Shown here: piece after piece, positions 4,612 to 56,632 of the stretch
Numbering within the stretch: position 1 is the first letter of the stretch
Layout of the letters: each line of letters opens with the position of its first letter
Origin: Lingula anatina
Lineage: Eukaryota; Animalia; Brachiopoda
Reading direction: 5' to 3'
Assembly: GCA_051362555.1 (NCBI GenBank)
Contig: JBPQGU010000016.1
Location: forward strand, 2,170,001-2,234,000
DNA: 64,000 nt
Notes under the pieces: generated by a model
The model's input: the letters and a program-made list of their open reading frames with translations, nothing else
Databases searched by the model: none
Told to the model about the DNA's origin: nothing
Program-made: the position numbers and the translations under genes

Positions 4612-4675
4612 TATGTGAACCCTCTCTAAAGGTGCACCGGTGTGGAAATTTTGCAATTCAGCTCTGAATTTCCTG

Positions 4676-4711
<36 letters not shown>

Positions 4712-7659
4712 GAGCTACACATGAATTGACATACAGTTTGCAGTCGGTAGTCATTCCATACTTATTTTTTAGGTCATGCCAAAAGAGGGTTAAAAGAGCC
4801 TTTATCAAACCTGTTGTAATATAAAACACCATCTTTCATGGACAGCAAATTGAAGTTTGTCCATACAAATTTCACAGCTGTCGAGCATAGATGCAACCCC
4901 TCTTGAGAAGGACTTACATTTTCCTCAATCCAACCTATCACCTTTAATAAGTGAGGATCTTTTAATTGCGCTTCTCTGAGTTGACTTACTGTATACTTGG
5001 CAAACAATTCAACATTCCCAGTATTTTCCTTGTGTGGGTTTACGACAGATGTAACAGTTTTCACGCTTCTTAGAGACAGGTGCCCTGTGTAATCGACATC
5101 TTTGTTAAATCTGTCCCACTCTTCATGAAGCCTGGTACAGTGGTGGCAGCCTCCACAAGGTAATTGTCACACCACAACCAGCTTCATAGTAATAACAGTC
5201 CTTGTGCTGAAGAGGAATGCCTGACAACGAATCAGCATTACTGTGTTTTTTACTCGATCTGTGCTGAATTTCTAAATCACACTGGGCCAATTCCTCCATC
5301 CACCTTGCTAAAACACCATTTAGCAATTTAAAACGCATGATCCAGGTCAAACTGCAATGATCTGTCCATATTACAAACTTTTTACCATAAGTGCCTGTAC
5401 TGCCGAGTAAATCGGACTACTGCTAAAAGCTCCTTTTTAGTCGTGCAATAACGTTGACTAGGAGTGAGAGCAAAACTACCATAACTAATGACCTTTTCAG
5501 CGTCATTTTGCATCTGTATGAGCTCAGCGCCAATACAAGTATCACTGGCGTCCGTGTCTAAAATAATTAAACAATCACTGTCTGGAAAACTTAGCACGGG
5601 ACTATGGACCAAAGCCTGTTTCAAGTCATTGAATGCAACTTCGTGTTCATGAGTCCAATTAAAAACACGTTTGTTTTTGGTCAAATCATTAAGTATATCA
5701 GCAAAACATTTTATGTGACTTCTATGGTAATTAACTAGACCAAGGAATCTTTCCACGTCTTTCTTACATTTCGGACGTGGCCAACGTTGAACTGCTTTCA
5801 CACTGTCAGGGTTCGGAGCAATGCCACTCTCATCTACCAATTTACCCAAATAGAGAACACTCCTTTTGAGTAATGAACACTTGGATGGTTTTAATTTCAA
5901 TCGATTTTCTTTGAATCTATCCAACACCAGTGCAATATTGGCTATAGAATCATCAAAACTGTTCCCAAGCACAACAGCATCGTCCAAGTAAGCGATCACT
6001 TGTCTCCACGTCAAACCACGCAGAACGGAATTGACTGCTCGCATGAAAGTAGAAGGGATGTTAGTCAAACCAAACGGTAGTCGTTTAAATTCAAACAAAC
6101 CGTACTTGGTCATAAAAGCGGTTTTAGGCCGGGAGCTTTCCTCAACTCCAACCTGATAATAAGCACAGATGATATCAAGAGTGCTGAAATACTGAGTGCC
6201 CGCTAAAACATCTAAGGATTCGTCTATCTGTGTAGTGGATACACATCCTTGACGGCCACTTTATTCAAAGCACGAAAATCTATGCAAAATCTCAAAGTGC
6301 CGTACAGGGTATTTCTTTCTCACTAAAACAGGAAGGGATGGCCATTCAAAACGAGAGGGTTGCACAATATCAGCGGCTAACATTTTATCTAATGTAGCCT
6401 TTTCCTCTTGTTCAAAACCCAGAGGTGTACGTCTCAGTCTTTGTTTAATAGGCTTTGTTTCGTTGATATCAGTTATATGTTTAATCTTGGTAAAATGACT
6501 GATATCAAATTCAGATTTCAAAAAAACATCGGTATATTTTATCAAACGATTGCCTAATTTGAGAGACTGCTCAGTGAACAGATTCTCACTAGATCGTTTC
6601 CACAAATCAATCACGTGTTCAGGAATATTATTATCCACATCGTTAGAGTTCACATCAAGAGTGTTCACATCGATTTTTCCGAAACATTTCATAAGGGTAT
6701 CTACAACACTGTACAGGTGCATCCTTTCGTTAGGTGATAGTTTTACAAACTCGTCAAGGGCTTTACCTTCTAGTGAATTGATCATAATTTCGTAGATTTC
6801 TTTGACTCCCCATCCCTTGCTCTTGGCAATGCAACATAATTTTAAGTAATATGAATGAAGTTAGTGCTTCCATCATAGGATTGGAAAAGGGTGGACGGCT
6901 GGGGGCAGATAATGTGTGACTCATTATATATGGGCGATGACCTACCTGTTGGAGGTGGTTGCCGATTTTTCGTCACTATACAGGGGAGTGTCCACTGGCC
7001 TCGACCTTTGCGTGGGGGTGAATCTGGGTACATCCTCAGAGAATTGTCGATGTGGCCCGCTCGGATCAGAATTCTGACACCCATAACGGTACGCTATCAC
7101 GTTTGGGTCAGTGACAACTGGCTGCCCAGGTCTGGTACAAAATCAGGACTTGAACTTATTCGCTCAGTTAAACCATAAGATGAAGACTCCGTTGAAGTAT
7201 CAGAGACAGGATGAGCATCGGCATCATGAGGATAATTTATCTCAATGTGTCCTTGCTGAGCATGAGTCAAGGGTGAAGCTAAATCTTCCAAATAGGGATG
7301 GATTGTCACGTCTCATATATGAGATAAATTCTGTTTGAAATTTCTGCAATCCTTCTGTCATTTTATTAACATTTTCACACAGTCCTTCAAATGTTGAGTT
7401 CAAGTGTCCAATTTCGTTTTCCATTCGTGTAATCCGTGTTTCCTCACAACTACTGTCAATTTCATTTGAGCATAAAGGCTCCACCTTGTTGAAAATCGTA
7501 AAATAATAATTATTCAACGTGATAAAATGTGACCATCCTTGTCGCCATTGTTGTGAGTTCTGCTTCATTACGTTCAAGATTCCCGCACCAAGTCACATGG
7601 TACCCGGTGTCATGCGACACCTGGCGTGACGAATAAACAATACATACACTGATACACTA

Positions 7660-15393: not shown

Positions 15394-15468
<75 letters not shown>
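15394..15468. repeat. (TA)n microsatellite
   Basis: Directly visible. Confidence 0.95.
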
Positions 15469-15470
<2 letters not shown>

Positions 15471-15489
15471 CGGAATAGGGGAACATTAC

Positions 15490-16179
15490 CGTTTCAGCAT
15501 CGGGAACTTTATACGGCACCGTTTCAACAGATTTTATCAGCTCTATCATCTCTTCTTGTTTCGTATCTCGGTCTTCCCGGTCACTGTTTTCTACACACCA
15601 TATTCGTTCGCCACATTCGTAATAAAGATTCAGAAATGGTTCTGGCGAATCGGTGATATATTCTCCGATGGAAGTGTATTCATGTTTTATGACATAAGCA
15701 AATGTAAAAAAATGATACTTTTCTTAGGGAAATTGTCTCCGAAAATCCCCCGTAACTGGTTTACTGCTTCTATTTGAGTATGTTTGATTCGGCCCATTTT
15801 AAACACAATCAATATAGAGTCCACTTGCTTCAGAGATCCAGCTTCCTTGTATATTCTGCGCAATATCTTATTGTCACTTTTGGACAGCGAGCCTAAACCA
15901 GGTGTGTCCATAAGATGGACAGTGCAAGAGCAAGGTTCGTTGAGCCTGAATTTCGTGTGTGCAATTTTGCCATCTTTTCCATTATACTCACGGTCATCGG
16001 ATAGTTTCTGTACAGTTTCAGATTTCCCTTGCCCCTTATAGCCAACGACTATTACGTTGTAGGTTTTAGTGGTCGCCCTGAAAAATGATTACACCATGAA
16101 TTATGAAAAACTGAACTATAAAAAAGCAGTAAAGAAAGTCAGAAAAATAAAATGAAAACCTTACTTACAGCAGAGACAT
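15490..16179 (-). pseudogene. AIG1/GIMAP-like GTPase gene 1 (spliced; 1-nt frameshift, either pseudogene or assembly error)
   Basis: Exon 1 at 16179-16169 (ATG TCT CTG CT|gtaagt). 91-nt intron ending tttttcag. Exon 2 at 16077-15490 reads ATTKTYNVIVVGYKGQGKS...LMDTPGLG...VDSILIVF. One extra T in the run at 15706-15712 restores IIFFTF...CGERIWCVENSD...YKVPDAET|gtaatg. Confidence 0.85.
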
Positions 16180-16357: not shown

Positions 16358-19300
16358 CAATATATATAATCAAGAATTCTAAAACACACCACATTAATGA
16401 TATTTAGACTAATGGTAAGGTATAAAGTATAGATGCAGTAATGACTATAGCCTTTTCTTGATAAATCGGCTTTAACGCTTTATTAATTTAACAGTTAAAC
16501 TGAAAGTATATTTATCCGTTTCTTTAGCCTCAAACAGAGTCCCCGTGCAACTTACTGTTTAATACCTACGTTTCATAAATGATTCACCATTACACGTGAA
16601 TATTTACTTACATTGCTGTTCCTATTCGGAGAGAACGGATGATCTAGCGAATGGCTATAAAAATCAAACTGCGCATGCACTGATAATTCGCGGGACCTTC
16701 ACAAAGGCGCATAATTTGACAATTGCAAGGGGAAATTGTAAACATGCATTATTTCATTATTTTGTTAATTACTTGCTGCTGGCACCTTCTTTTGATCTTC
16801 TTCTCTTTATATTGTATAGTTGCTATGTCCAAGTTGTTACTCGTACATGTATATGTATAAAACACGATGACTTCATTCAAGTTCAAACTGACATGAAACA
16901 AGGGGCAAACAGAGCGCTTCTTTTTCCCTTTTGCTTTAGGCAGCAAAATATTATAGTTGCAATGAGACGCTACCTGAGCTTTTGACCTCATAACAGCGTC
17001 ACTGAGCTCCTGACCTCATATATACGCCCACATAAGCGTGCACAGCACAGCCTCAAATGCTGCCAGTAAGGAAGTCTGCGTTACGTGTACCGAACACATA
17101 CTGAGCTAATTAACTATGTTCTGATAGTTCAAACAAGGTAAAGATTTAATATGTTCAAGTGAAAAAGTTACATTACACTCATCAGGGTTAATTTGTTATC
17201 AACAGATTTTGGAAGAAAGGGTAGGTGAGCTTGAATCCGAGCCACCCACACTGGATCAAATGCCACGCTGACTTGCAAATACGAGATGGATACAGCGTTA
17301 ATAACGTAAAAAAAACACATAATTGAAGGCACAGAAGAAAATAGTTTGGATTTTTCTAGACATCACCTCGCCATTTAGCCGGGCACTTAACCGGTCGCGA
17401 TTCTCAGTCCAGCGGCAGCGAGGGTTTTTTGAGGCTCAAGGCAAATTTTAATATACCTGGCAAATACGTAAGAAACAAGGCGGAGGCAAGAGCAAATGCT
17501 AGTTGAAAAGGAAATAGGGTGAACACAACAGAAGGTGACGTCACTACACTGCGCCCGTCTATTCGTCTGCAAACCGTGAGTTTTTATTTTCCTTTTATTT
17601 AATTAATTGGATGATATGTTTGTCTACTCGCCCCTTTATTTATTTTTATTAATTGACTGGTTAACTGATATAATTTTTATGCCAGAAAATACCAGCTCTG
17701 AAAAGGATAACCATCAAGGCTTTGTTAGCTGCATGCGTGCCTTCAACTTATGCTCGATGTACCCTGTCTGCTCCCATACCCTCTCCCAAAGTTATAACCT
17801 AGCTGACAGAATAAACTAAATATCCATCTTTATGACCTTGCGATACAGTTACATTTTGTTTATGTACTTTCTTAATATGTGTTACCATTGTGCCAACCAA
17901 AACCCAACACCTAGTACATCCAGTGTTTAAATTTTGTCCAATTGTATTGATGACTAAGTTGTCAGTGCTTTACAAAAGAACCGATGATTTTTGACAAAAT
18001 ATAATTTCGTAAACATTCTTTTTTTTATGTAAGTTGCCTACTTCACTTCAATTTTTCTCGCCAGCTCAAAGATTTCTCTGATATTTGAGCGGATTTAAAA
18101 GAAATGTAGTGTTTTATGTCCCCGTGAATTACACAGCGCCTGCACGGGGGAACCGATATGGCAAGAGGAGGGCGAGCCAAAGACGTCCATTCGTGTCCCT
18201 TTCGACCGACAAGCATCGCGTTTAAGTGTTCAACGTTACTTGAAAATTAATTAAAACGCAAATTAATCTAGACTTCAGATTTAGTAAGACAAAGAAATAT
18301 ATTATTAGAACTTAATTAAATCCCATTTAAGATGTGCGTAAAATCTGAGTAATTGCAGTTGGTATTTTCAACTTATACTATAAAAGCCGCTAAATGTCAT
18401 TTATTGTATTTTATTGTCAAGTTATTGTTTAAATATATTTTTTTAGATATATTATGTAAGACGCTATGAGAGTTCAATGGAGTGTACATGTACCTGAAGA
18501 AGAGGGGGAGGAAAAGAGAGGGAAAATTAAAATAAATAGCAAGTTACAGCTAGCGAGAAGATGGCAGGGAGGAAAATTTGAAAAAAATTCAAATCCATTA
18601 ACTCCCTCCATAAGCACACACACTGAACTTTTATTCGTGTACATAATCTCTTAAGAATGGTTAAATCGCATTATTCATCTCTGATCATTTATATGCCATT
18701 AGCTGAAACGAATATAAACACTGCCTGGAATGAATATTTGAGTAACTCGAACAAATTTCTGGCCCAGGCTTTTCCCAGTGAATCATAGTTCACAATGCAT
18801 GCAGGTACTGGACACCTGACAAAATTTGTTGAGAAAACACAGAGGAAAACGCCGCAATTTTTATTTTCAATTCTGTTACATGATTTTTTTTTTTTTTTTT
18901 TTTGAAGTATTAATAAAAAAGAAAATAAAGTAATTGGACAGTGCATATTACTAGAATCGTTAATGCAGAAACGTGAAAGTGATACAAAGCAGATAAATAC
19001 TGAAATTTATTGAAAGATCCATAGATTAAAGGCACTTCCATCTCATAAGGATTACAGAAAGCCAGTCTTCTTGTTTATCAAAGACACTGTTTATCAAAGA
19101 CATCACTTACTATACTATATATAGTATTAATTATTCTCTGGACCTACTAGTAAGTAATAAGCCAGTTGTAAAAAATAAAGAAGTATTGGCTTTTCTTTAT
19201 TGGAAAACACTAAATAATTACCTTCTGCATGCATTGTAAAACTGGTAAATATTCAAGACATTTAGTCCATTTTTGCTATAGTTTCAACAGGGCTAGGTAT

Positions 19301-20605: not shown

Positions 20606-23600
20606 TGTATTTATTTGGAACTTAAAAAGTTGGATTTTATAATAAAAACAAATAGTGGTGAGATGCAAAAATGTACCTGTAAGTGTTTAAATGATTCGAT
20701 ACACATTAAAAGTTCATAGAAACCTCAGTTCTTAAAATTGATAAAGCCCATGGGATAAAGGTTTTTGACGATCGTACAGTCCCCAATTTTGACACAGTGT
20801 ACTTATAAACCAGGCGTAAATAGTCTAAAAGTGTAGGGACTTTCATTTATCTCTGGTAGCAAATGATGGATTTTATGTCCTTCAGAGTACATGTTATTTT
20901 TTTTATTTTTTTTTTTTTTTACAAAATTCACATATGTGAACTTCCCAGCTCAAATCACTACTGATCCTAACCCCTAAGAAGACAGCAGACCCCACTCTCT
21001 CAACTCTTTGATTATCTACTAGTAAGGGTGTATTTTTGTGTCCTTTATTGGAGAAATTAAATATGATCTCTTTAGTCTTGGTAGTATTTATTGTTAGTTT
21101 ATTAGCATGGGACCAGAGAATTAGTTCTGTTGTTGCATCAGGGAGATTGTCCTGCAGTTTGGTATTCCCGTAGCTTAGAATCGTGGTGTCATCTACATAT
21201 TTGAATGTGTCACATTTGGTGCTCAGATCTTTAATCATAAGGACAAATAAAACTGGACCAAGTTTTGTGCCTTGTGTTTCACCTGCATTAATGTGTTGCT
21301 AGTCTGATTTCACACTGCCTATCTTCACACTTTGTTTCCTCTCAGCTAGGAAGCTGTAAATCCAGTTTGAAATAATTCCTGGAAAACCTAATTCAGACAG
21401 TTTTTGATAAAGCAGGGCGTGGCCTATTCTATTCTATAGAATGCTTTAGTATAATCGACCAAAAACATTCTGGCATATTGTCCTAGAGTGTCAGTGTGCC
21501 TTGCAATACGGTCAAAAGCTTCTCTCAGTGCGTATGTCGTACAGCTCTCTTTTATGCTGCCGAACTGCATAAGGTCAAACTCATTGGTCACAATGTTACA
21601 AATCCATTTAACAATAAAACCCTCCAATAACTTAGAGAGCACCGCGGTGTCATGTACCAGAAGGTCCCCCATGACAGAAAGTACTAGGACCCCTGGTTTC
21701 TAAAATAACGGGTCTCGGACTCTGTACCATGGTAATTGGGTATAATATACAGGGTCCCCCGAACCCGGCATTTTACCGGACCCTACGTTGTTATGACAAC
21801 TATCACGAAACACCGAGTCCGCCCGTCATACAGAAAAACTGTATATCGCACAGGGTCGGAAAACTAGGGTCCTACTGTAGAACAGTAGATATTTAGTAAA
21901 AGCGCTTTATATTCACAATCTGGGCATAAAAGTATTATAATAAAGCAAACCTTTGATGCAAGTAAATATAATATAACAAACGGCGGTGGTTTGCACAGCG
22001 GCCTGGTGGTGTATTGGAGAGGGACACGGACGAAGAGCTTACTATTGAATGAAAATGACAGCCTACCAGACATTGGTTCGAGTCACACAATGGATTTGAA
22101 TTTCGTGTACCTACCATTTCTCATTCTTATTTTTCACTTATACTTAACTTAAAAGTAAAATGTTTAACTTATCGTAAACTCATTGTGTACCATGCCGCAG
22201 CAAAAATGTTTAAGACACACTGTTCATTACATTTCATGTTTTTTTTATTGGAGGTTTTTTACAGATATTGTATTGCCTTGTGATCGTTTGGACTAGGCCC
22301 ACCTATACGCGTGACTTATTTAACTATACCACTATAAATATGTGTAAGCTAGTCATACACAATGCAGCGATGCTTAGCTGTGCAAGACGTTTCTTTTCTT
22401 TAAACTATACGCGTGACTTACAATGACTACCACTCAAATGTGTGACAGCTTGCGTTATGCAGTGCATCAGTGTTAAGCTGTGCAAAATATGTTTTCTTTA
22501 AACGGACGGAATTCATTTATTATTAAAGTGTCATTGAATATATACTCATTTAATTTTGTTTTACAGTTTAAATAACTTATATATAAATTAAGTAAATGAC
22601 CTGTATATAAATGAATCAACCCAAAAGGAATGTGTTTCATGGTTCTCAAGGTATAAAATGGCTAGCTGCTCACGATGCCCTACACCGTCACCATAGATTT
22701 TCAAGCAATACGGCTTTATAAACAACATGGAGGGTGTACCATGAAAATTTGACTCCCCTAAGAGGTGATTCCCCATAATGAAAATCTGACTCCCCAGTCA
22801 AAGTTTCATGATGAAAATCAGACTACCCCAAGATAAATTTTGACCCCACCCCCACAAAACTCAAAAATTGTTATTTTATTTGAGTATAAGACTTTCATTT
22901 TGAAGTATGCATAATGGAGGGTATATTGACACTTTGTTAGTTTGCAGGTGCAATTTTTCATGAAAACAAAATTTTAGATACGTATTTTACCACCCAATGA
23001 CTCCCCTATGAAAAAGCTTTTCATTTGATATGTGGTGATCATTTCAACATATTTCCTTTTAGTATACTTTATGAATAATATATTGGAAATATTTGAAAGT
23101 TTGATGTTGAAATATTTGGATGGAAAGAATCAGGAGAAATATTCATTTTCATTCGAAACCAAGGGGAGTCAAAATCCCACGGGCACAAGAATGCAAAGTT
23201 ATTACCCTTTTTTCATTAAATTATCCCCACTTTTCATTTAGTTTTTAGGGTCCTAGGACTTTCCGTACTAAAATAGAGTGTCTAGGGGGACTCTACATTT
23301 CAGGACTTAAAGTCCGAGACCCGTTATTTCGAGACAGGGAGTCCGCCGGACTCTCAGATTTTAAAACACCGGGTCCGCCGGACCCTAGAGTGGTAGGACT
23401 CTGTGTTGCTTGACACCAGAGTTAGAGATATGGGTCTAATGTCTGTCTCTATGGTCTTTGGAGGAATGCACTTAGGTTGTGGTGACACATATGCATGTTT
23501 CCAGCGTGGTGGGACATATCCTTCACGAACTGAAGAGTTGAATATATCACGTACTGGGGCAGCTAGGTACCCTGCTAGGTCATGGAGGATCCAGTTGGGA

Positions 23601-26094: not shown

Positions 26095-27389
26095 AGAATA
26101 ATAATAACAATGATAATAATGAAAACGATAATAATTATATAAGTAATAATAAGAAGAAGAAGAATTCGTGTAGTATATTTCTATAATTATTATTTATTTT
26201 ATTATTCAAAATTATATAATAAAAATATTCTAAAACATACCAACTAAAATGAAAAGTGAACGATGGTGATTTCTTCAGACAATTGCCAAGACAGACAATG
26301 CGGTAATGAGCATAGCCTGTATTAGTTATAGAATGCCATAATCTTGATAACCATTGTCTGAAATCGAGCGCAGTTAACATTAACGTTTTCCTTGAACGGC
26401 TGAATCGAAACTACTTATCCTTTTCTTTCGCCTAACACTAACTCCACGCAAGTATTTGTAATTACATAGCTATTCCCGTTTGTGAGAGTACCGATGCTCT
26501 ATCGAAGCCTTCCAACCGGTGATCTGTGCTTTGAAGGGTTGGGGGGGGGGGGGCAAATGACTGTGCAAGCAAGTAACGAACTGGGCATGCTACAGGGGCC
26601 TTCAATAGACACATCATTTGACGATTGCAAAAGGAAATCATTATTAGTAACGTTCAGAACGGCTTGTGCATCTAGCTTTGAAAAGCTTAATTAAACTATT
26701 TGATTTAATTAAATTATTAAAATAGAAGACATAAAAAACGATAGTTAAATTTCAGTTATTTTATTTCTTATATTTTATTATTTTATTATTTTTCCGCTTT
26801 CATTCCCTTCTTTAGACCTTCTCGTCGTTACAGTTGTATTGTCTAATCTGGTTTTACTGTATTATATTAAACAGATGACAACATATAATTTTAAGATAAT
26901 TTCACATATATTTCATAATCTGTTCAATTTATTGATGGTATATGACTTACGTTTATACAGCGTTAGAGAATAGAATCAAGGGGTCCGCTGTCGCTTTGCT
27001 ACATCTCTCATAAGTACAACCTTTCTTATTTAATTTTGTTTTAGCCAACAAAAAAGGCATTGTTGCTGTGAGACGCTCCCTTAATCCTTGACCTTCCCTG
27101 CGTTACGTATAGGAATTTACTTATCAGCAGCACGAAGTAGCACGAGTGCATATACTTGCACAGCGTACAACCAGTTCTGCTGTCAGGGAGGAGGTCTTCG
27201 TCACCAAATACATATTAAGCTCATAAACTGCACTCTTATAGCCTAAACAAGGTAAACGATTTAATAAGATCTGTAACTAAGGTCATCAGGGTGTTATCAA
27301 AATACATTGGAAGGAAGGACAGAGTAGCATTTTAATCTGTCTGTTTACTACAACTCTATCCCCTGGAGATTTTATTGAAGACAGTATAT

Positions 27390-28684: not shown

Positions 28685-29301
28685 AATAATTTGCCTCAAT
28701 TTCACATTGCTTATTATCAGTATGAAATCCATTCTATGTGTACTCTGCCTTTAACTGTATATATTTTTGCATGAAGGCAGACAAAGTGTATCAATGTCAC
28801 ATCGCTTATTCTCAGTATGGTTTTCATTTCAGATGTCAAGGCAGGAGGATGACAAGGTAAATACTTTCGTCCTCCATAGCATCTCATTCTTTCTCTTACA
28901 CACACACACACACTCAAGCACATCGGTAAAGTCAGGTAAATATTATTCCCCTGAGCACAATACCACCTGACTACCCCCAAGGAAAAAAAACTACCTCAGG
29001 TAAGAAAACATACTGTATTCGAAATATCTATTTGAGAATTTTATAAATTACTTGAATATTTTGCGAAATATCAGATAGAGGGCAGTTGAGATATAAGAAA
29101 TGGTTATTTTAATATAAATTATAACTATAAATATTATAAGATATAATTAAGATTATAAAAATCAGAAAAATCTTTCACGGATGTCAATTTGCAAATTTGA
29201 CATTGCAGGACGCTTTTGATCAAGCAAATACTAAGTTCTAATTGGGATGTGGTCTTGGCCACTTAGGAAGTGGACTAGATTAGTACTGGGCCTGTGACAT
29301 A

Positions 29302-36634: not shown

Positions 36635-36992
36635 ACTTGGGTCAAAGTAAATAGAGTTCTAAGAAAATGCCACATTCTTTCAGTAAATTATTCTTGCTAT
36701 AACGTATTGTAGAATATATCGGTGAGTTCTCAAATAATATCAAGTTTATCAATTTTGTGTTAGCCTCTCAAAAATAAGGTATTGGAGGTATAATTGCTAG
36801 ACCATTTCTCGTAAAAAACAATGTATTGTCAGTTCTACCACCTATGCGGTTGGTAACCCACTTTAGAGAACGGTCAACTTTAGACCACCTCCTTCCCTTA
36901 CAGGGATTTAAGTGGCCATAATGTACCACCGCTGCTTTTCCTTTTATTTTTATCTTATATAAAATCGGAGAAATCAGCTCAATAACTTTGAA
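36635..36992 (-). mobile_element. Gypsy integrase C-terminal fragment related to 1-380, within the presumed intron
   Basis: Colinear similarity to window positions ~10-380 (CCCTTACAGGGA.TTAAGTG...TCTTATA.AAAAT.GGAGAAA). Confidence 0.75.
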
Positions 36993-37247
36993 CGGCGGGT
37001 TTTTGGAATGATATTATGCCTTAACACTATGTAACCCTTTGTGTCTTAGTACTTGTTTGTGGCTTTAAATTCTTGTTGGACATTATCTGCATTTTCATAT
37101 TAAAAAAAAACTTATTATTTTAATCATCAGTAAGATTATGTCGGTTATGTCCTGACATTAGTGAGGACAGTAGTTCCAGACACTGTGTTTTTCCTTGGGT
37201 ATTAACGAATTGTGAGAGATAAGTAATATTATGGGTATCTACTACAG

Positions 37248-38630
37248 GGCAAAGATGGTTACGAAGAAATACCGCCAGCTTATGCAAAGGGGGAGCACAC
37301 CAACATATTTGTCGTTGGGCAAACAGGAACTGGAAAGAGCTGTACGTGTAATATGATGGTGAACAAAGAAGGAGCTTTCAAAACAGGATTTGGCTCTAAA
37401 GGTGTTACGGACGACGTGTCATCTCACTGTGCCAACTTGGGTGGACGCAAGCTTCGCCTGATTGATACTCCCGGTCTTTTAGAAGCAGTTACGTATAGAC
37501 AGTTTGGATTTATGAAGAAGATCATGACGAAAAACATTAGTTTGCTCGGCGGCGAGGAAGGTATCGACGCGTTCTTGTTTGTCATTAACTGCAACGATAC
37601 GCCATCTCAAAATGAATTGAGCGCCTTAGTTAAGTTAATTTCGATGTTTTCGGAAGACATTTTTGAATATATGGTTGTTGTGGCTACTCACAAGGACGAA
37701 CTTGAGATGAACGAAAGGACAACAGAAAGTTTCAAAAGCAGTCTTCCCGGCAAAATGAAGACGATCCTTCAGAAGGCTGGTGGAAGGATAGTGTTTATCA
37801 ACAGTGTCACCAAAGACGGGAGAGAGCGTAGACACTACGTTAATTCTATCATCCGCCGTGTTGATGAGATTGCAAGAGCTCATCTAGGTAAGAAATTTTC
37901 CAATGAAGCCATCGAAAAAGCACGCAAGAAAAGACAAGAACTAGAAAAAAAATACCCTAACCTGAGTGAGACCGGTATACAAGAGGAATTAGAAAAGGTG
38001 ATCGAGCCATATTTAACATCAGAATACTGGTGTTTTGATGGCTCTTCCACTGTGCGTCTTAGCGATGGGTCAGTCACACCAATGGCCAAACTAACATCCG
38101 GTGACAGGGTGCTTTGTGTTAGGGATGATGGCTCCGTTGGCTTCGAGGAAATCTTCTGCTTCAGCCATGCAGATGAAAATTGTCAAACTATATATGTCCA
38201 CCTGCAGACCGCAACCGGGAAACACCTTCTCCTTTCTCACGGTCATTATATCCACGCTCTCTCAAATTCTACATCATTCCCATTTTCCATTAAAGCCGCC
38301 CGTGATATCCACGTTGGAGATGTGGTGTTCACTTATCACCCTGCCACCAACGCCATATTTGTGGATGAAATTGCGGCAACAGGCAGTAAGAAGGTCACCG
38401 GTGCCTTTTGTCCTCACACCATGAGCGGCACCATCATCGTCAATGATATTTTGGCGTCCTGTTACACCGACGCCGTAGAGCCCCTGGTGGCGAGAAAATT
38501 GCTTATGCCAGCCTGGTGTATGTACAAGTTGCTTCCGCTGCCTGTGTCTGCGCCCTTGTTGAAAGATGGCGTCTCAAATACCTGTAAACTTTTGTGCGCG
38601 ACGAAGCAATATTTAAAAAGTCTTTACTAG
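37248..38630 (+). CDS. AIG1/GIMAP-family GTPase fused to a Hedgehog-type Hint (Hog) autoprocessing domain; main coding exon, 460 codons
   Basis: Acceptor ctacag| at 37247 with an in-frame stop at 37224, so an upstream exon is needed. GTPase motifs: G1 GQTGTGKS, G2 SKGVT, G3 DTPG, GIDAFLFVI, G4 THKD, then FINS. A charged helical linker follows. Hint starts at Cys codon 38031 (CFDGSSTV...GDRVL...LLLSHGH...VGD...GAFCPHTMSGTIIVNDILASCY) and is followed by a ~54-aa tail. The frame is uninterrupted. Confidence 0.95.
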   Translation, partial: GKDGYEEIPPAYAKGEHTNIFVVGQTGTGKSCTCNMMVNKEGAFKTGFGSKGVTDDVSSHCANLGGRKLRLIDTPGLLEAVTYRQFGFMKKIMTKNISLLGGEEGIDAFLFVINCNDTPSQNELSALVKLISMFSEDIFEYMVVVATHKDELEMNERTTESFKSSLPGKMKTILQKAGGRIVFINSVTKDGRERRHYVNSIIRRVDEIARAHLGKKFSNEAIEKARKKRQELEKKYPNLSETGIQEELEKVIEPYLTSEYWCFDGSSTVRLSDGSVTPMAKLTSGDRVLCVRDDGSVGFEEIFCFSHADENCQTIYVHLQTATGKHLLLSHGHYIHALSNSTSFPFSIKAARDIHVGDVVFTYHPATNAIFVDEIAATGSKKVTGAFCPHTMSGTIIVNDILASCYTDAVEPLVARKLLMPAWCMYKLLPLPVSAPLLKDGVSNTCKLLCATKQYLKSLY

Positions 38631-39549
38631 AGTGGCGTGTGCGCAAACCACTGTCAATGACTTAAGTGTCTGTTGCAGGGAGCAGGATTCAATTGATAAC
38701 TTGGAGTAAGAAGATGTCATATCTGTGTACACATGAATGCTTCCCTGCAACTAATGTCATGCTGGTACAATTCGCTGTGGCATGGAAGTATTTTTATGTG
38801 TTTATCATGTGAAATTTGAACATTGCGATTGGGGACATTACTGCAGGTGGTGCAATTCTACTATTTGATTATGTGTTAGTGTTGTAATTCTGAAACACTC
38901 ATTAGTTTACGTTTTAGAAAAATATCAAGCACAAAAAGACCCGATTCTTTTTCTATGTCTTGCTTCCTTCTAATGTTTGTGACCGAATTTATTTTTAGAA
39001 TTTGTATTTATATACTTACGTATTTTATCATCGAAAACGGCGAACACGTTTTACCAATTCTTTACAAGGCATAATCAAATTTTGAAATTCCAGTGTATGC
39101 CAAACTATAGTTTAGTTAGAATTATGTATTTGTTTTGAAACTAAAAGATCAAACAAGGCATTTTCCTTTGATGTTATGATGGTGCGATCCTTTCATCTAA
39201 GCAAGTCGTTTTCCCTGAGACCAAAATTTGGTGCGGCTCAATATACATGATTTTCGCACCAATCTTATATTCTCCAGAATATAGCAAATTTATGTATGAA
39301 CAAATTATTACTCGGCCCAGTTGATTTGCCCTTTTGTACTTTTTTTGGTGTGTGTGATTGTGTGTTTGTGTGTGTGAACCCTTAAATTTGTAACCGAATG
39401 CAGATGATCTTCTAGCAGTAACAGTTAACTTATCTCAAATAGTAGTAAGGATTTCATTTGGGTTAACGGGGTTATTGGGGTATTGCTCGTTTTAATATTT
39501 GGCCTATGTTTCAGAGCCAGTTGGCATATATAGTGACTTGACTAAGAAT

Positions 39550-42434: not shown

Positions 42435-44575
42435 ACATGTAGTCCAAGCTTTGTGCTGAAGGCAACAGCGGCATCAAAGAGATTATGGAGATCCTCCCTT
42501 GATGTAGCTAAAAGAACTCTATCATCGGCATAGCGGAGATTGTTTATCCTGACACCATTGACTGTAGACGATCCTCCAAATCTCTCAAGATCATTTCAGA
42601 GTATAAGTTCAAAAGGTCTGGAGACATGACACAGCCCTGACACACTCCTCTTTTGATGGGAAACCAGTTGGCCATGCCTTCAGGAAGGCGGACTGATGCA
42701 AGCTGATCACAGTAGACTAATCTTATAACCCGCATGTCTTTGTCATCGATTTGAATTTTTGCAAGCATTTTGAAGAGCTCCTCATGTCGGATCTTGTCAA
42801 AGGCTTTCTGATAGTCAATGAAGACCATGTACAGGTCTTATTGATGTTGTAAGGTTCTCTTGCTGAGCATTCTGAGAACAAATATGGCATTTCTGGTGCC
42901 TCTGTCTTTCATGAAACCAAACTGGTAGGGTGGAATTTCTGGCAGAATTTTGCGTCTAATTCTTTGTAAGATGATTTTCAATAGGATTTTGAGAATGTGG
43001 GGCATCAGGCTTATTGTGGGATGACTTGAACAATCAAGTGTCCCTGGGACTTTGGGTAGAGTGATGAAGATGGATTTGAGTATGTCCTTTGGAAACTTTC
43101 CAGTCTCATAGATTTCACTGACTAGACTCCAAATCATATCAGTACCTTCTTTTCCAAAAGCTTTGAGCATCTCTGTGTATACCTCATCTGGTCCAGCTGC
43201 CTTTCCGACTTTTATATTTCCCAGTGCCCACTTCACCTCTGACTTTAGAATTGGTGGACCGGTTTTTGCAGTTTCCAGAACAATGCCCTCTGATTCTTGG
43301 TCGTCATCGAAGAGATCTTGAATGTATTCTTCCCAGCGAGCTGGGATATCTTTAAATTCCTGTAAGACATGACCATCGGCAGCTTTAATGCATTTGGAAG
43401 GAGGGGAAGATCGTTTACCTACTATCTGGTTGATCTTTTGAAACATTTTCTTGGCATTGAAACTAAGGTTCTCAACTTCTTGGCATTTTTCCTCTAACCA
43501 AACTTCTTTTGATTTGCGGCGTTTCTTGATGTATTCTTGGTTTATTTGTTTGTATTGCACAGGGTTGTATTTGCAGATTCTTCTTTTCTGTGAGAGATCT
43601 TTGAGTTCAGAACTGAACCAGTAGGATGATGGTTTCTTGGCTTCCATTTTGGGAATGTTGTTCTCAGCTGCCTCTTGAATAGTTTGCGTGATTTGGTGGT
43701 AGTGTTTTTCTATATTATTGTTTTTCTTATATTGGCAGACTTTTTAGAACTTCCCTTTAAAATTTGTTGCATATCTCTGGGTCACGTTGCATGGCTGTGA
43801 AGTCGAACTTTGGTTTGACTTTGGATTTTTGGATGCGCTTGAGTGATAATTTGAATTTGGCTATCACTGGATTGTGATCTGAAACAACATCTGCTCCTGG
43901 GAATGCATGGGAATTCTTAATAGCATTTTGGGATCTTGAATTGATTGCAATAAAGTCAATCTGATTCCTGGCTTGGTCACCAGGACTGATCCATGTGTAG
44001 CGTATTCTTGGATGTACTTTGAACCAGATATTGGTGATGAATAGGTTCTTATCTCTGCACCAGTCTACAAATCGGTCCCCCTGTTCATTCCTTTCACCTA
44101 AACCAAACTGTCCCTTTGTCTTTCCGTCACCTCCCTCACCTACATTGGCGTTGAAATCGCCCATAACTATATTGATATCATCAGACTTGCAGGAAGACAT
44201 CAATTCATAGAGAGATTGGTAAAAATCATTGATCTCAAAGGACTAGCTTTAAGTTTAACTAGCATCATTCGGTCGTTTTTGGGCCAAAAAGAAAGAACCG
44301 AGTTGGCAAAGCTCTTGTTAAGAATCAAAGCAACGCCATGAACATGTTGGTTCCATCCAGAAAAGAGAATACGTTTCCTGTCTTTTGTAAAATCACCCGA
44401 CTTAGGCCACCGTATCTCGCACAAACCTAAACAATGGATGTTCATTCTGTCCATTTCTACAAGGACATTGTCCAGTGTCCCTGTTTAATACAGTGTTCTG
44501 ACGTTCCATGTACCGATCTATTTGAACTACAGTTGGCTGTTAATTCCAAAATGGGCTTGGGGTTAGTCGACGACT
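41790..44575 (-). mobile_element. Near full-length degenerate RTE-clade LINE (APE endonuclease + RT)
   Basis: Motifs GTWNVRT, LCEIRW, VMGDFNA, QIDFI, SDHNPV, GKAAGPD, FIDYQKAFD, GVCQGC, LRYADD and GKSARGR. Multiple frameshifts. Confidence 0.93.
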
Positions 44576-45632: not shown

Positions 45633-48600
45633 ATGCGGCAAAATAAGTTGAAAAGTAAAACAAGTGTATTTAAATAATAATTGTTATTATTATTATTATT
45701 TGTTGTTGTAATTAGAATATTTATAAGTATTTATCATTGTTTGTTTCATTTAGAGAACAGTAGTGTATAAGTTTTGAGATTATATTACCAGTGACCCATT
45801 GTTACGGGTCAATTATTTTTGAGAGTAATGAGCAGATCATACTGGGCTGGAGACCACTCGTGATTTAGCAGCAGATGCGCATGGGGGCTAGCCCATCGTA
45901 TGATTTTGTCACAGATACGCATGGGGCAAGCCCACCGTATATGTATACATTTTTTTATTTGAACAACAGGATTATCTCCAAGTTTATGTAGCTGAAATTC
46001 GAGTAAGTTATTATTATTTTATTATTTATTTGTTCATTATACATGTAGTATCATAAATTATGCGTTTACTTTGCTCATGTTCACCATTAATTGTACTCCA
46101 TTATCATGTTAGTATTATCATTTTTATTTTTATTCATTGCGTTTATTTTTATTATTTTTTTAGTTTCACCATTTGTCTTATGTATGATGTGATGATGTGA
46201 AATAAAAGCTACTGAGATAGGAATCCTGAGTTGTTCAACAGTGAAATCGAATGCAGAGTCCCTGTCGGTGATATTCGAATACCGAGTCCTACCCAGTGAG
46301 CCACCTGTCTGTGTCTTTGTGTCCAACGCCTGGTCCCCTCTTCGTGTTACAGAGGAGGGTGAACGTTCCACCGCGCCGACAATATGAGTGAACCAGAGAA
46401 AATGGAGGATCTACGCCGGGCGAGAAGAGCGCGTAAGGGCGTGGTCACTAGATGTATTGGGGCAGTGGAAAGAGCCGTAGCTGAGGAGGACTCTAAACTA
46501 GTAGGGAGTAAGCTAGATAAGCTTAAAGACACTTTCTCGTCTTTTGGATCATTTCATGACCAATTTCATAGTTTACTTGTTGATGATGAAGTAGAATCAA
46601 GCGAAGCATGGTTTCGCGAAGTAAAAAACAATTTTATTGAATTCAATTCAATTCAATTTATTTCTGTACTAGTACATAGATTGTCATTACCTTGTACAAT
46701 ATGATATACTGATGACGATGTAATACAATCAGTGCATTACCATTTCTCTAGTTGGTATTATGTTGCCTAGCCATTTGTGAATGAAAAAATAATCTTTATA
46801 TAATGAACATAATACTACTAAATTACTCATAAAATAGTCTATGCAATGAGATATTCTAAGCAATGAGATAAATCTTGGTGTGATTATAAATTTACCATAA
46901 ACACACTGTAAACATGTTACACAAAGGGATATGTTTAAACTTAAAACCACAGTTACATATCTGCTTACATGGCTGTTTAAAGCCAGTTTGATGACAAAGA
47001 TAATTACGATTAATGACAATTACATAAGACAGATACTCATAGGTAAATACGTTACACAGATATAAATATTGTGCCATGTTCAGTCCCACTGCCGAGTCAC
47101 TTCTCACAACAGTGGGACCATACACTGACATATGCTAGGAGTTACCAAGCAGAGCAACCATTTCACTTCTTTTCTTGAATGATTTGATTTGAAGTTGGAG
47201 AGGGACACATCTTTGTTGGCACTGTTAAATACACGACATAATTGACTGTCTGGTGACCTTGTATCAGCTTTAAGGATTGAGGTTTTACTAAAAAATGTGA
47301 CTCGGTCTGCTTTGTACATTGGGCATTGGAATATAAAATGGTATTCATGTTCAATTACCTCTTGGGTGCACAGGTGACAGATTCTGTCGCACCTGGTGTG
47401 CCGCCCAGTTTCGATGTGGAGTTTATGGTCACTGAGACGTAGTTTAGCAAGGGTTCACAAGGTGTCGTAATTTGTTATTTTATCAACATAAGTTGCCCTT
47501 TCACACTTTTGGTTAAGTATACGGAAGAGAGACAATTTACTGTTGGCTTGAAGTTTCCTATTGCATATTTGGGAAAAGTGGTCATTTTGTCTTTGTTTGA
47601 AAATTGTGATGAAGTTTTTTGGAGGTGACTGGCTAAGCCACACATCTCCAAGGCCAAATTTTGAAAAGGATTTTTCGGATCCCCTCAGACTATGACATAT
47701 AAGCTGGTCTGAGTGTGTGGACTGCGGGAGGAACATAGGGTGTCAGCTTGTAACTATTTATCTCTTGTATGTATGCTTGCTTCATTAGTGTATCATCAGA
47801 CATTTGAATTATTTTACACCATAGTTTGACAGATGCAAACTGTATTTTGGTATAGAGGGGAAGGCGGCCAAGTTCAGTGTATACACCATAGTTTGATACA
47901 TTTTGATGGAGGCCAAGGATTTGTTCGCAAAATGTTAAGTGTAACTTTTCTGTAGGGCAGTTATCCATTGACACAGAGTAGCCCCATATCTCTGAGCAAT
48001 ATGTAAGGATTGGGGAAATGAGGGTATCAAATAATTTCTCTTTTAAGGATGTGTTAACATTACTCTGAAGCGGAAGAGACTTGGACAGACTGAAGATTGC
48101 CTTTGTAGCACGTTGGAGGAGATTACTTTGGGTTTCGATTTAGAAGGAGACCTAGATACATGTATTTGTTGACCTCTTGGATTGGTTTTCCATAGAGAAA
48201 AAAATTTCACTGTGGGATTTTGATTTTGAGTTGAAAATAACTATTTTAGTTTTGGTGACATTTACAGTCAGTCTCCACTTGTTACAGAAATTTTCTACAA
48301 TTTCCAAACTTTGCCTTAGCCCCTTGGGGGTCTTGGACATAAGGATGAGGTCATCAGCATAGAGTAAACCTTGTATTGGTATTCCATTTATATCTGGACT
48401 TGCAGCACTTTCGCCATCAATTGATCTAAGAAGGTCATCAATAAAAATATTAAAAAGAAGTGGGCTCAATATGTCACCTTGTTTTACACCTAGTCTTGTA
48501 TTAAAGGCCGGGGATTTACCACTACTTGTCTTAACACATGCTTGGGAGTTTTCGTACATGCTCTTAATGTTTTTGTACATAAGCCCTCTTATTCCTAGAG

Positions 48601-49530
48601 TACTTAGCTTGAACAGTAGTCCATTGCTCCAAACACTATCGAATGCTTTTGAGAAGTCAATGGAACATGTGTATAATTTTTCTTTCCTTTTATACATTTT
48701 GTAATAATGGACTTAAGTATAAAGATGTTATCTGAAGTACCATGACCATGTTTAAACCCAGTTTGATGAGGTAGGGGTACCCCTTGTTGTGATGCGTGTT
48801 CAACAGGACCGAGTTGTACAGCTTTCCGAGGCAGCTTGTAATAGATATTCCCCTGTAGTTGTTAACATTTGATTCGTCACCAGATTTGTGGATAGGGACT
48901 ACATGTATATATGCCTTGTTCCATATTGATGGGTACTTAGCACTTTTGAATATGATATTGAACAATTTTACAATTACATCTATAAGATAATCCTTCCCTG
49001 ATTTTATCATTTCGTTTGTTACCTTGTCTTCCCCTGTTGATTTGCCATTTTTCAATTTTTTGATATTGTTCATGATCTCATCAGCACTAATGTCATGGTC
49101 AAGTGCAGTTCTGTCTGAAGAATTCATTTCACTTTGCCTTAGTTTATTTTCTATTTTAAGCTTGAAATCTTTATCAAAGTTATGTTTACTTGATTCAGTT
49201 TCCTCACAAAGACTTTTAAAATACTCATAAAATTCACTTGGTTCAATAAATTCAGTTTGTGTAGACTCCATATTTAAATCTTTAACCGCTTTCCAGAATA
49301 TTTGGGATTTGCATTTTCCATGGATTGCAACTTTTGAAGAAGGCCTTTTTTATATTCTTTTTTTTTTTTTTTTTGCTTTCTTACATCCTTTCTTATAACG
49401 ATTGAATGTTTGGTAATATGATGCATTGACTGAATTGTCAAAGGATTTCTTGCTCCTAAGTTTTGCTAAGTTTTTTAAGTGGGACCTCAGGGATTTTAAG
49501 TCATTGCTGTACCATGTTGCCCTTTTCTTG

Positions 49531-49561
<31 letters not shown>

Positions 49562-51155
49562 TGGACTGAGGTGTATTTTCTTGATTTAAGAGCCTTTTCA
49601 GCTGCAGTTGTGAATATTTAATTTACTAAGGGTAATGCCTCTTCAGGGGAGAGAGCTTGTGACATAAAGTAATCAACCTTTTGTTTTGTTTCCATGTTAC
49701 CCAGGGCCTCGACAAATTTAATATGAGAATCATTTTCCCAAATGAATTTAGTTGGCTTTGGCATCAGCTGAATTGATTTTGTATGTATGTTGTAAGTAGT
49801 TTTGCAGTACAGTTCAAGTTCAAGTAGGGCGTGGTCAGAAAATATTGACAGATCATTGACGTGAAAGTTTGGGATGCTGCTGTACAAAGTGGCGCTACAG
49901 ATGACGTGATCAACAACGCTGTTACCAGCTGGTTGTTAACAAGTATATTTGCCAAGTAGATCACCTAGTTTACGGCCATTTAAAATTCTTATATTGCAGT
50001 CTTTGCATAAGTCTAGCCTCCTATCTTACCAAAGAATCACCCTGTGTCCCGTTTGATTATTCAAGATTGTCACAATGATGTGCATTTGCGATGTGAGTGG
50101 ACATTGAGTCGAGTTCGGAAGAAATATTGGATAGTGGGTGCGAGGAATTCGATAAAGCATGTTGCACGGATGTGTGTAGTTTGCAAGCGATTATATGCGC
50201 CGACAATTGGCCAAAGAATTGCTGATTTGCCACCAGAACGTTGTCAAGCAGGAGGTCCCCCTTTTGATATAGTGGGAATTGATCTCTTTGGTACCCTTAT
50301 GGTCAAGGTTGGTCGATCTCAAGTAAAACGCTATGGTTATGTTTTTACTTGTTTTAAGACTCGGGCAATTCACCTTGAAGTTTTAGAAAGTCTAGAGACG
50401 GGCACATTTCTCAACGGATTTATTCGTTTTGTTTCTAGACGAGGGTGTCCAAGTAAAATATTTAGTGACAATGGTACAAATTTAGTGGGTGCTGCAGCTG
50501 AAATCTCACGTTGTTTGAGTCAGATTGACAAAAACAAAATTGTGTATCATGCCAGAAGCAAGGGAATAGAGTGGGTTTTTAATCCTCCTTATGCATCCCA
50601 TTTCGGTGGTGTGTGGGATAGAATGGTGAGAACTATCAGAAAAATTCTGATGAGTTTGGGGTCGTCAAGATCAATGTACGACTGGTCTTTACAAACTCTT
50701 CTATGTGAAGTTGAGTGTATTGTGAATGGACGTCCCATAACCAAAGTCAGTGAAAGTGTTCAGGATTTAGATGCTCTCACACCCAATCACTTACTCGCAT
50801 TGAGAGCTGTACCGTCACTTCCTTAGGGAAAGTTTGACACGGCTGATACGTACAGAAGGTTATGGAAGCATATCCAAGTCATTACGACTTAGTTTTGGAA
50901 AAGATGGTCCAGCGAGTATCTTGTATTGCTTCAGAGCCGTTCAAAGTGGCATAAAATTTGAGAGAATTTAAAACCGGGCGATCTAGTTCTTATGGTAGAT
51001 CAAGACTTGCCGTGTGGCTATTGGCCCTTAGCTATCGTGGAATCAACCAAAACTAGTCGCGACGGTCTATAGAGTGCCACCGTACGCACACGCAGCGGTA
51101 AATACATTAGACCAGTTAATAAGTTGTATATTAAAGAAGGAGACTTATAATTGTC

Positions 51156-54800: not shown

Positions 54801-55017
54801 AGTGCATATAGTGACACACAAGTATGTAACAGTGTTGATGACAAGTATGATAAAAATAATGGGTCTGCAGTGTGAACTACAGGTATAAGTTGGCCTATGG
54901 ACCAGTGCCTGAATAAATGTATATACAGTGACAGTTGTGTTTGTCTGAGAAACTGTGAGAAACTATTAAGAAGCTGTGAGAAGTTAGATAAAATCACAGG
55001 TAGCTTTAACGAACAGA

Positions 55018-55620
55018 ATGGCGGGTCAAAAGATGGAGGAAACCAGCGTTGTATGCCACAGCCTGCAAAACTACAACGTGTTCATAGTGGGGTACAAGGG
55101 ACACGGCAAGTCAGCCACTATGATGAACATTATACGAGAAGTAAATTATAAGGGAGCCGCAGGTTACAAAATAGAGGAGAGAACACACGGGAAATGTACA
55201 TTCTATGATACCCCGGGTTTCGGCTCACTGGACACAACCGACCCGAAATTGTTGCGCGTGATAAACGCAAAAGCCCATGCGGTCGGTGAAGTGCACGCTG
55301 TGTTATTCGTGCTGCGTTATTGGCGCATCACAAGTTCCGTGATTACTTTAATACACCAACTTAAGGACGCTTTCGGTTCAGACTACCACAGACGCACCAT
55401 CGTAGTCTTCACTTTTTCAAAGAATGAAACCGTAATGAGGTTAAGAGACTATTTGGAAGACGGTGCGTTGGAATTTAAGGAATTTGTCAATTTTTGTGAG
55501 GACAGAGTGATCATGTTGGAGAATTCTGACTTCCAGACTGGGGAATCTGCTGCCTCCCAAATTGAGGACATGATAACCAACAGTATGCACTCAGAGCCGT
55601 TGGTAGTCCCATGGTCTACA
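55018..55620 (+). CDS. AIG1/GIMAP-like GTPase gene 3 (main exon; ORF reads through to a stop at 55674)
   Basis: YNVFIVGYKGHGKS, FYDTPGFG, VHAVLFVL, RRTIVVFTF, CEDRVIMLENSD. Donor ACA|gtaagt at 55620/55621 lies at the same position as the donor in gene 1. Confidence 0.88.
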
Positions 55621-56632
55621 GTAAGTAACCTAGCTTTCTATAGTCACTTTCTTATATGTTTATCGTTAAGATAAATAGAAAAGTAAGAATGGTTATGTGT
55701 GAAAAACAGATTGAAGAATGCATAAGTGAAAAATATGTAAATAAATGAATACACTCAGCTTTGTGTGTTTGTGCGTGTTTGTGCGTGTATCTGTTTTTGT
55801 GTAAGAGAGAAAAAAGAAATGCTTTTGGGTGAGTGGCCGTATGAATAAAACGAATTAATACAATATGGCGAATTGTACATTTTACAGCTGCTTTCATTTG
55901 TATTTGAGAATAAAGGTAAATGCTTATAAAAATCAAAGTATTTGCAATTTAAAATATATTCATATTTTATTGTTTTTATTGCTCTGTTTCGTTCCAATGT
56001 AGGGTGTATTTGTGGGCTTGTCTGGACCTCATGGTGTTCGTGATTTCCAGTGTATGGCAGGGCCTGTGTTACCTGCACATAAAAGAATTAATTATTCAGA
56101 AAATAAAACAACAGTCCATATATTTCACATTGTATATTTAATCATATGAATGAAACCGTATTTCTTTAACATTGCTTTAGATCTACTACTTCAACAATTA
56201 TTGGACACAAATGGGCACCAATCGCACACACCACCTTTAAATCAATCAAAAATATGTTTTACAATGCATAATCATTTCTTTATTAGTTCTTTAAATAAGG
56301 GGATTATTTGATAATATAGCAATCAATACAAATCTTCATACTGGAAAATACTTATAACCAATAACTTAAAGAAATACAGCAGTGGAAGCGATTTTTATGT
56401 AGTCCGATAAAGTATACTAAACAAAAATATAAACGCACGAAAGTATATGTTGATTTATTTTCATGTATGGAACTAGAGTATATGGCCAACATTAACAGCA
56501 TATTTTCCTCAACAAATAGACATCACTTTGAGAGCATTACAGGAAGTTTAAATGCATAGTCCAAGAGTTAGGGCATCAACTACACCATGGGGGTCAACAT
56601 CCTGAGTTCACATCAGACACTAATAACAAGTA

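Follow-up and report, generated by a model that had tools for sequence, protein, structure and literature searches.

The window analyzed here, a stretch of 64,000 nucleotides from the brachiopod Lingula anatina, holds a real, spliced gene of the AIG1-Hog type, in which a GTPase domain of the AIG1/GIMAP family is followed by a Hedgehog-type Hint (Hog) domain. Our main finding is that this gene is most likely an offshoot, devoid of its MACPF domain, of a three-domain MACPF-AIG1-Hog family that occurs in brachiopods and molluscs, escapes standard Pfam annotation and seems to be undescribed. In the reading that we favor, and to which we give an even chance, the Hog domain would cut between Trp and Cys262 and so free a GTPase of the scaffold type, cholesterol transfer as in Hedgehog being no part of the process; the gene itself would be a former MACPF-AIG1-Hog gene that likely lost its predicted pore-forming exons.

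Passing mentions of the AIG1-Hog pairing go back to 2002. The present locus offers a compact test case for the role of Hog in it, with two clear contrasts to Hedgehog: His occupies the general-base position throughout the family, and the residue that precedes the cut is free to vary. It would also illustrate, in a single place, the loss of an N-terminal module through duplication of a 5' end, decay of a MACPF exon and gain of a new exon of eight codons.

Known AIG1-Hog proteins

The pairing itself is not new, because it has been described in fungi, coral, snails and lancelets, and the doubt about novelty voiced in the first-pass annotation of this DNA was well placed. GmGIN1 of Glomus mosseae consists of an AIG1 GTPase followed by Hog on one chain, with no signal peptide, and the window's protein has the same composition by which the GIN1 type is defined (PMC2362128). 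AIG1+Hint proteins, which like GmGIN1 belong to MEROPS C46, have expanded in Glomeromycotina (PMC8778642). In animals the combination is reported for four Acropora transcripts, where protein splicing was inferred (PMC3723955), for Biomphalaria (PMC7053062; PMC10075465) and, as CARD-AIG1-HINT, for lancelets (PMC12373286). The proteins of Acropora, Biomphalaria and Branchiostoma share the two-domain core of the window's protein and lie in expanded, variable immune gene families. In the accessible parts of these invertebrate reports the partners named are death/CARD, kinase, ARM and Hint domains, MACPF not being among them, and the architectures are given without residue-level or biochemical analysis. 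A MACPF-AIG1-Hint fusion was not found in the literature covered, including PMC7053062 with its supplements, PMC9334734 and PMC10075465; subscription papers and some supplements may bear on this point.

Judged by features, the closest Atlas cluster (score 0.93) is from Mucoromycota, with Hint and AIG1 in 100% of its 59 members. The fungal homologue P0149, from Rhizophagus, keeps the Gly before the catalytic Cys, the conserved-box Arg of the GTPase and an H-P-Y motif in the second helix of the tail, whereas all three are lost in the window's protein; a profile of the MACPF-type N-terminus finds no such domain on P0149. Work by Requena in 2002 and Heupel in 2010 reportedly demonstrated in vitro self-processing of fungal GIN1, so that the earlier remark that no biochemical characterization was known may be wrong.

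Gene structure and predicted product

The first-pass annotation had described one open exon encoding both domains, and this was borne out: the main exon (Table 1) reads open through 460 codons to its stop, a CAG acceptor with 37247 as its last base lies directly before it, and both Pfam families score far over their cut-offs. Residue numbers (C262, H307, C405 and so on) take the first codon of the main exon as 1. Loose read ends at 37246 led to the first coding exon: in run X14 six RNA reads, and in run X2 one contig, continue there into a sequence that matches one site only in the window. In X14 the eight letters 5' of this mini-exon correspond to 27244-27251, where an exon ends at a GT donor. 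Donor sites of this kind number two in the upstream sequence, versus 0.25 expected. For the first exon, 27245 was preferred to a donor at 17131, which agrees with the read end at seven of eight letters, versus eight of eight at 27245. First-exon candidates in 36650-37230 were discarded as well, this segment having zero depth in all seven bins in all four runs.

Table 1. Positions of the features of the AIG1-Hog locus in the window
Feature	Positions	Strand	Basis and remarks
Diverged duplicate of the 26595-27337 promoter/first-exon region	16692..17237	+	Collinear blastn pieces, 72-80% identity
Broken exon, MACPF-type domain (aa 1-123 of P0157)	17206..17575	+	Four in-frame stops, deletions; AG/GT ends retained
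Probable promoter region and first exon (non-coding)	27023..27251	+	Donor GTAAAC at end; start provisional
First coding mini-exon, MSRQEDDK	28833..28856	+	AG/GT ends, phase 0; eight codons, polar
Main coding exon	37248..38630	+	AIG1 G-domain, helical linker, Hint domain, SRR/ARR-like tail, stop; ORF, Pfam, AlphaFold2, Foldseek
AIG1/GIMAP G-domain, aa 19-234	37302..37949	+	Pfam; has G1-G4, with Thr118 in place of the conserved-box Arg
Hint domain, Cys262 to SCY	38031..38465	+	C262, H307 (D46 position), S330/H333 (T-x-x-H position), C405
Helical SRR/ARR-like tail	38466..38630	+	Without Hedgehog H374/F377/R381 and HWY residues
3' untranslated region	38631..39110	+	Minimum extent; unbroken X2 contig cover

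The spliced product has 468 amino acids, 269 of which precede Cys262. No signal peptide is found in it, the N-terminus being polar, in keeping with the earlier remark that neither candidate first exon looks like one. No segment of transmembrane grade is found in the N-terminal fragment or in the tail, the best 19-residue hydropathy of the fragment being 1.34. As judged from these features, the protein is probably cytosolic with an N-terminal part of about 270 residues, as had been proposed. The AlphaFold2 model of the main-exon product, built from 49 sequences, has a mean pLDDT of 89.7 and a pTM of 0.72.

The GTPase domain

Motifs, Pfam profile and fold agree that the AIG1 domain is complete with G1 to G4 intact, as first noted. 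The Pfam AIG1 match reaches 131.8 bits (E 2.8e-38) against a cut-off of 27, a Foldseek search with the AlphaFold2 model retrieves GIMAP7 (3zjc, E 9.8e-17), and the motifs are G1 GQTGTGKS (G24, G29, K30, S31), G2 Thr54, G3 DTPG (D73-G76) and G4 THKD (T147-D150). The protein is thus like human GIMAP7 and GIMAP2 (PDB 3zjc, 2xtm) in its AIG1 fold and G1-G4, but differs from them in a replaced Arg, in having no transmembrane anchor and in its C-terminal Hog domain.

The replaced residue is the conserved-box Arg, here Thr118; 33 of the 38 aligned rows with a letter in this column have Arg or Lys, and the two closest relatives, P0157 and P0003, likewise lack the Arg. In GIMAPs this residue is the dimer or catalytic Arg (the catalytic finger). 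Only some GIMAPs hydrolyze GTP, the rest being thought to act as GTP-bound scaffolds (PMC8857920), and Thr118 would accordingly mark a non-catalytic subtype rather than exclude the protein from the AIG1/GIMAP family.

The Hog domain and its tail

Pfam places the Hint domain at aa 259-453 (E 5.5e-31, far over cut-off), so that both families named in the HMMER check proposed earlier are recovered. Codon 38031 encodes Cys262 in the context EYW/CF, SCY lies at aa 404-406, and Foldseek matches the Hint domain of Hedgehog (6tyy) with a TM score of 0.94 by target and an rmsd of 1.4; the full Hint domain that had been read from Cys 38031 to ASCY 38465 is therefore upheld by profile, residues and fold. 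The active site of Hedgehog consists of C1, D46, T69, H72 and C143, and its D46H mutant autoprocesses in cells (PMC12054796). The equivalents here are C262, H307, S330, H333 and C405. In the 49-row alignment (A2), all 49 rows have C1, H72 and a His where Hedgehog has D46, and 46 have C143. Since the catalytic set C262, S330, H333 and C405 is present together with His307, the first step of Hint chemistry (thioester formation) and self-cleavage are likely, and the earlier proposal of a thioester-competent active site gains in plausibility.

Compared with the Hog domain of Hedgehog (PDB 1at0, 6tyy), the Hint fold (TM 0.94, rmsd 1.4-1.5), C1, T/S-x-x-H and C143 are alike, while the window's protein has His for Asp46, Trp for the Gly before Cys, no signal peptide, and an AIG1 instead of a Hedge domain. 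In Hedgehog, Gly precedes the Cys and processing takes place in the ER (PMC9163320). The residue before the catalytic Cys takes 14 different letters among the 49 rows, Gly being found in six of them. For a Trp at this position (Trp261 here) no test was found in the literature drawn on, which counts against the reading that we favor.

An intein has a C-terminal His-Asn, followed by a C-extein. The window's Hint domain ends in ASCY with no His-Asn or C-extein, and no intein family was matched at E up to 0.01; protein splicing is thus unsupported by the window's sequence.

After SCY the tail is modeled by AlphaFold2 as four helices (412-418, 420-428, 431-439 and 442-459; pLDDT 68-92). The SRR/ARR-like tail of the first-pass annotation therefore stands as a helical region, but not in its Hedgehog sterol-transfer residues. 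In human SHH, H374, F377, R381, H433 and Y435 are each required for cholesterol transfer in vitro, and mutants of the first SRR helix still cleave in 50 mM DTT (PMC7242414). At the corresponding positions the window's copy has R416, L419, W423, S443 and T445, and because all five are replaced, Hedgehog-type cholesterol anchoring by this copy is doubtful. Most rows of the family have Pro-x-Trp-like motifs in place of HWY. At the H374 position 40 of 49 rows have His, and at the R381 position 37 of 49 have Arg, family members such as P0037 and P0149 being among those with the His/Arg residues; since most rows keep these residues, the family may transfer a sterol and the window's copy may merely be degenerate, a second point against the reading that we favor.

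These data bear on an alternative close to the original proposal, according to which Hog would join Trp269 (468-aa numbering) to a lipid alcohol, such as a sterol, providing a membrane anchor in place of the transmembrane helix of GIMAP1/2/5. The D46H mutant of Hedgehog reportedly accepts more sterols than the wild type. A His at the D46 position sustains processing in Hedgehog (PMC12054796), the tail is still modeled as a helix-loop-helix with the conserved Pro421, several vertebrate GIMAPs are anchored to membranes through their C-termini (PMC8201404), and the N-terminal fragment has no transmembrane segment of its own. The replacement of the five SRR residues and a Trp before Cys without a signal peptide, as opposed to the Gly and ER processing of Hedgehog, argue the other way, and we regard lipid anchoring as unlikely. 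The idea that sterol ligation replaces a transmembrane anchor is thereby weakened, even though its premise, the absence of such an anchor, held.

Transcripts and expression

An X2 contig of 1120 bases covers AIG1 and Hint with 13 differences and no gap, and its reading frame is unbroken; the first-pass annotation had made its proposal depend on a transcript spanning both domains, and this contig would be one. X2 has zero depth in all seven intron bins, and all 23 bins from the acceptor on are covered. The run bears the label 'DNA?', which is a guess, and is small (58 million letters, versus 354 million for X1). Because of this size, the empty intron bins, the full exon cover and the gapless two-domain contig, we read X2 as spliced mRNA of the window's gene, the alternative being a processed DNA copy.

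In the RNA runs of 2026 (X14-X16), 9 of 234 reads are at least 95% alike to the window's exon; the reads on 37248-38630 are mostly 88-95% alike and locally resemble LOC106179620. One or more related copies are therefore expressed in X14-X16, and one of them also splices in the exon of eight codons; the X14 mini-exon reads, which differ at several places, may come from such a copy. RNA runs X8, X9 and X11 have hardly any depth over the exon, and three runs with the same species label contain next to none of the window's words. The RNA alignment over 19 kb is dominated by repeats, in which all splice joints among those listed are situated.

All nine coding differences of X2 that were classified are non-synonymous (from 40 rows, with 157 further rows outside the sample). 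A neutral non-synonymous share of 0.78 per site gives P of about 0.11 for nine of nine, and relaxed constraint fits this observation as well as diversifying selection. These nine differences, the small share of closely matching reads in X14-X16 and the near-zero depth in X8, X9 and X11 all speak against the reading that we favor.

Relatives with a MACPF-type domain

The two closest relatives are Lingula anatina proteins recorded as 'uncharacterized': LOC106179620 (P0157, 859 aa) and LOC106154465 (P0003, XP_013384271.1, 841 aa), which are 70% and 65% identical, respectively, over the whole main exon. Their Hint domains group with that of the window at 100/100 support, and they have the Trp-Cys site, the lost Arg and the altered tail of the window's protein. 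They differ from it in about 390 additional N-terminal residues, predicted to form a stonustoxin-type MACPF fold and a helical part, where the window's gene has its 8-residue exon.

Several lines of evidence bear on this prediction. By features, aa 1-390 of P0157 fall with MACPF_SNTX/MACPF clusters of the Atlas (0.90-0.95); among Atlas predicted structures, the same part is stonustoxin-like (TM 0.71-0.72 over about 350 residues), with 6 of 10 rows being MACPF_SNTX. In an abalone homologue, P0037, the corresponding N-terminal part retrieves stonustoxin alpha (PDB 4wvm_A, E 4.9e-6) and stonustoxin beta (E 2e-4) from the PDB, and P0003 aligns with this part of P0037 at E 1.5e-11. P0003, P0015 and P0037 contain TH-Y-x6-GG, which we take to be the MACPF motif. 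Pfam MACPF gives 19.1 bits for P0037 and 17.6 for P0015, both under the 21.5 cut-off, which tells against the favored reading, and P0157 and P0003 have no match. The AlphaFold2 model that we built for P0157 from 10 sequences (pLDDT 61, pTM 0.36) is of low quality over the N-terminal part, and the matches listed from fold searches with it are GTPases and Hint/inteins only. From sequence and the Atlas structure matches, P0157, P0003, P0037 and P0015 are thus predicted to carry a stonustoxin-type MACPF domain. The N-terminal domain of the relatives matches the MACPF/CDC domain of stonustoxin (PDB 4wvm), by sequence in P0037 and by predicted structure in P0157; the window's protein lacks it. In the relatives AIG1 and Hog come after this domain, where stonustoxin has thioredoxin-like and PRY/SPRY domains.

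Among 170 proteins that had been chosen by likeness to AIG1/Hint, a profile of four MACPF-type N-termini matched 11 (its four seeds plus seven) at E up to 0.01, and all 11 also have AIG1 and Hint. The 11 come from Lingula, Haliotis, Potamilus, Physella, Bulinus and Plakobranchus, with one further record. On a JGI/IMG contig of 4272 bases, P0043 is a 998-aa protein with MACPF-like, AIG1 and Hint parts, and as it was called on one short contig, it suggests that the three-domain form is an uninterrupted, transcript-like ORF. The first-pass annotation had the core domains right and missed both the MACPF-type domain of the relatives and the broken exon upstream.

The wider family set came from a HMMER scan, word-index searches having given one match near length, three longer ones and three with alignment A1. 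Among 48 matches picked from the best 150 of the scan, 42 carry both AIG1 and Hint, and the named sources include a brachiopod, molluscs, echinoderms, lancelets and Rhizophagus. As separate observations, a 36-chain structure, PDB 9uj0 ('Aeg-L'), matches positions 1-192 of the A1 profile (E 4.2e-4), and the AIG1-Hog homologue P0006 (Potamilus) has a strongly hydrophobic, signal-peptide-like N-terminus, in which it differs from the other 12 checked.

History of the locus

A remnant of the MACPF domain persists upstream of the gene. The broken exon matches P0157 at 52% identity (E 1e-27, tblastn with aa 1-410) and represents about a third of the N-terminal part; neither tblastn nor a six-frame profile found further MACPF exon pieces (P0157 aa 124-392) in the window, and the MACPF domain is absent from the gene's own product. 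In front of the broken exon lies the diverged duplicate of the gene's own promoter/first-exon region, whose local alignment score is 157, compared with a mean of 27 (sd 7, maximum 112) for random windows. In the 27 kb copy, the likeness stops just inside the expected start of the MACPF exon.

The simplest reading of the locus is that a MACPF-AIG1-Hog gene, or its 5' end, was duplicated, that the MACPF exons would then have been lost, and that a short new first coding exon took their place. Locally, the direction of change (loss) is supported by the presence of the broken MACPF remnant. Across phyla, the Hint tree (46 rows, four near-copies left out) does not unite the MACPF-bearing proteins in one clade; at least two changes are required, 28 of 500 shuffles are as low, and either gain or loss may apply.

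These events raise the question of whether the copy is decaying under relaxed selection after MACPF loss, or does not cleave, the uncut protein then using its tail as a membrane-binding module. Decay would be consistent with the broken MACPF exon and with the frameshift in a neighboring AIG1 gene, as well as with the nine classified X2 differences, all non-synonymous, the loss of the conserved-box Arg and SRR residues, and the scarcity of own-copy reads in the 2026 runs. Against it, the 460-codon frame is open despite a 30-35% residue difference from the paralogues and is gap-free in X2 contigs, and the mini-exon is also spliced into transcripts of a related copy. Moreover, the Arg and SRR changes are common to both MACPF-bearing paralogues and are therefore older than the MACPF loss. 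We judge a decaying or non-cleaving copy to be improbable, roughly on a par with lipid anchoring.

Proposed mechanism

In the favored reading, Cys262 would form the thioester with the aid of S330 and H333, and this would then be passed to C405, H307 serving as general base as in the active D46H mutant of Hedgehog. The amphipathic tail would dock the precursor at a membrane and gate the final step, in which the 269-residue GTPase would be released by hydrolysis or by a nucleophile other than cholesterol. The freed GTPase, having no conserved-box Arg, would remain mostly GTP-bound and may act as a scaffold or as a partner of the MACPF-bearing paralogues in cell-autonomous defense, the immune and partner roles being suggested by analogy.

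Ligation is a known alternative to hydrolysis. A ciliate BIL domain reportedly performs protein ligation, and the thioester might here be resolved by a protein side chain, joining the GTPase or MACPF-GTPase covalently to a target protein or microbial surface. The presumed cytosolic location, the unconstrained residue before Cys and the exchangeable N-terminal modules of the family (CARD, DED, MACPF-like) would suit such a reaction, and non-splicing Hint domains can have either hydrolysis or ligation as their outcome (PMC7242414). With neither the C-terminal His-Asn and extein of true splicing nor a target in view, we hold protein ligation to be the least probable of the outcomes considered, and a distinctly remote one.

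A bolder reading concerns the long forms. Brachiopods and molluscs might possess a one-chain cytosolic defense machine combining a stonustoxin-type pore domain, a GIMAP GTPase and Hog as the trigger of an immune pore, which is a speculative proposal that we consider rather unlikely. Hog would keep the thioester until the target membrane is reached, where a lipid or other nucleophile would fix or free the MACPF-GTPase; GTP-driven assembly of the latter would build the pore, and the window's gene would be a pore-less short form, the partner or restrainer of the long ones. If true, Hedgehog chemistry would work in the cytosol as an immune-pore trigger, and, should the long forms prove to self-cleave at membranes, this chemistry would trigger cell-autonomous immunity in invertebrates, which would also matter for the snail hosts of schistosomes, given the Bulinus homologues.

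Other elements in the window

Two further AIG1 sequences are present in the window. An open, single-exon AIG1 frame without Hint lies at 54988-55674 on the forward strand (Pfam AIG1 E 1.7e-20, G1 GYKGHGKS) and is 34% identical to the AIG1 copy at 15.7 kb. The latter, at 15450-16088 on the reverse strand, is of the same subtype and is arranged head to head with the promoter copy at 17 kb. Near 15700 an A/T run changes its reading frame, which indicates either a pseudogene or an assembly slip. Retroelement pieces (reverse transcriptase, RNase H, endonuclease, integrase) are found around the GTPase cluster at 2226-6860, 20903-21298, 42838-44242, 47690-49349 and 50017-50826.
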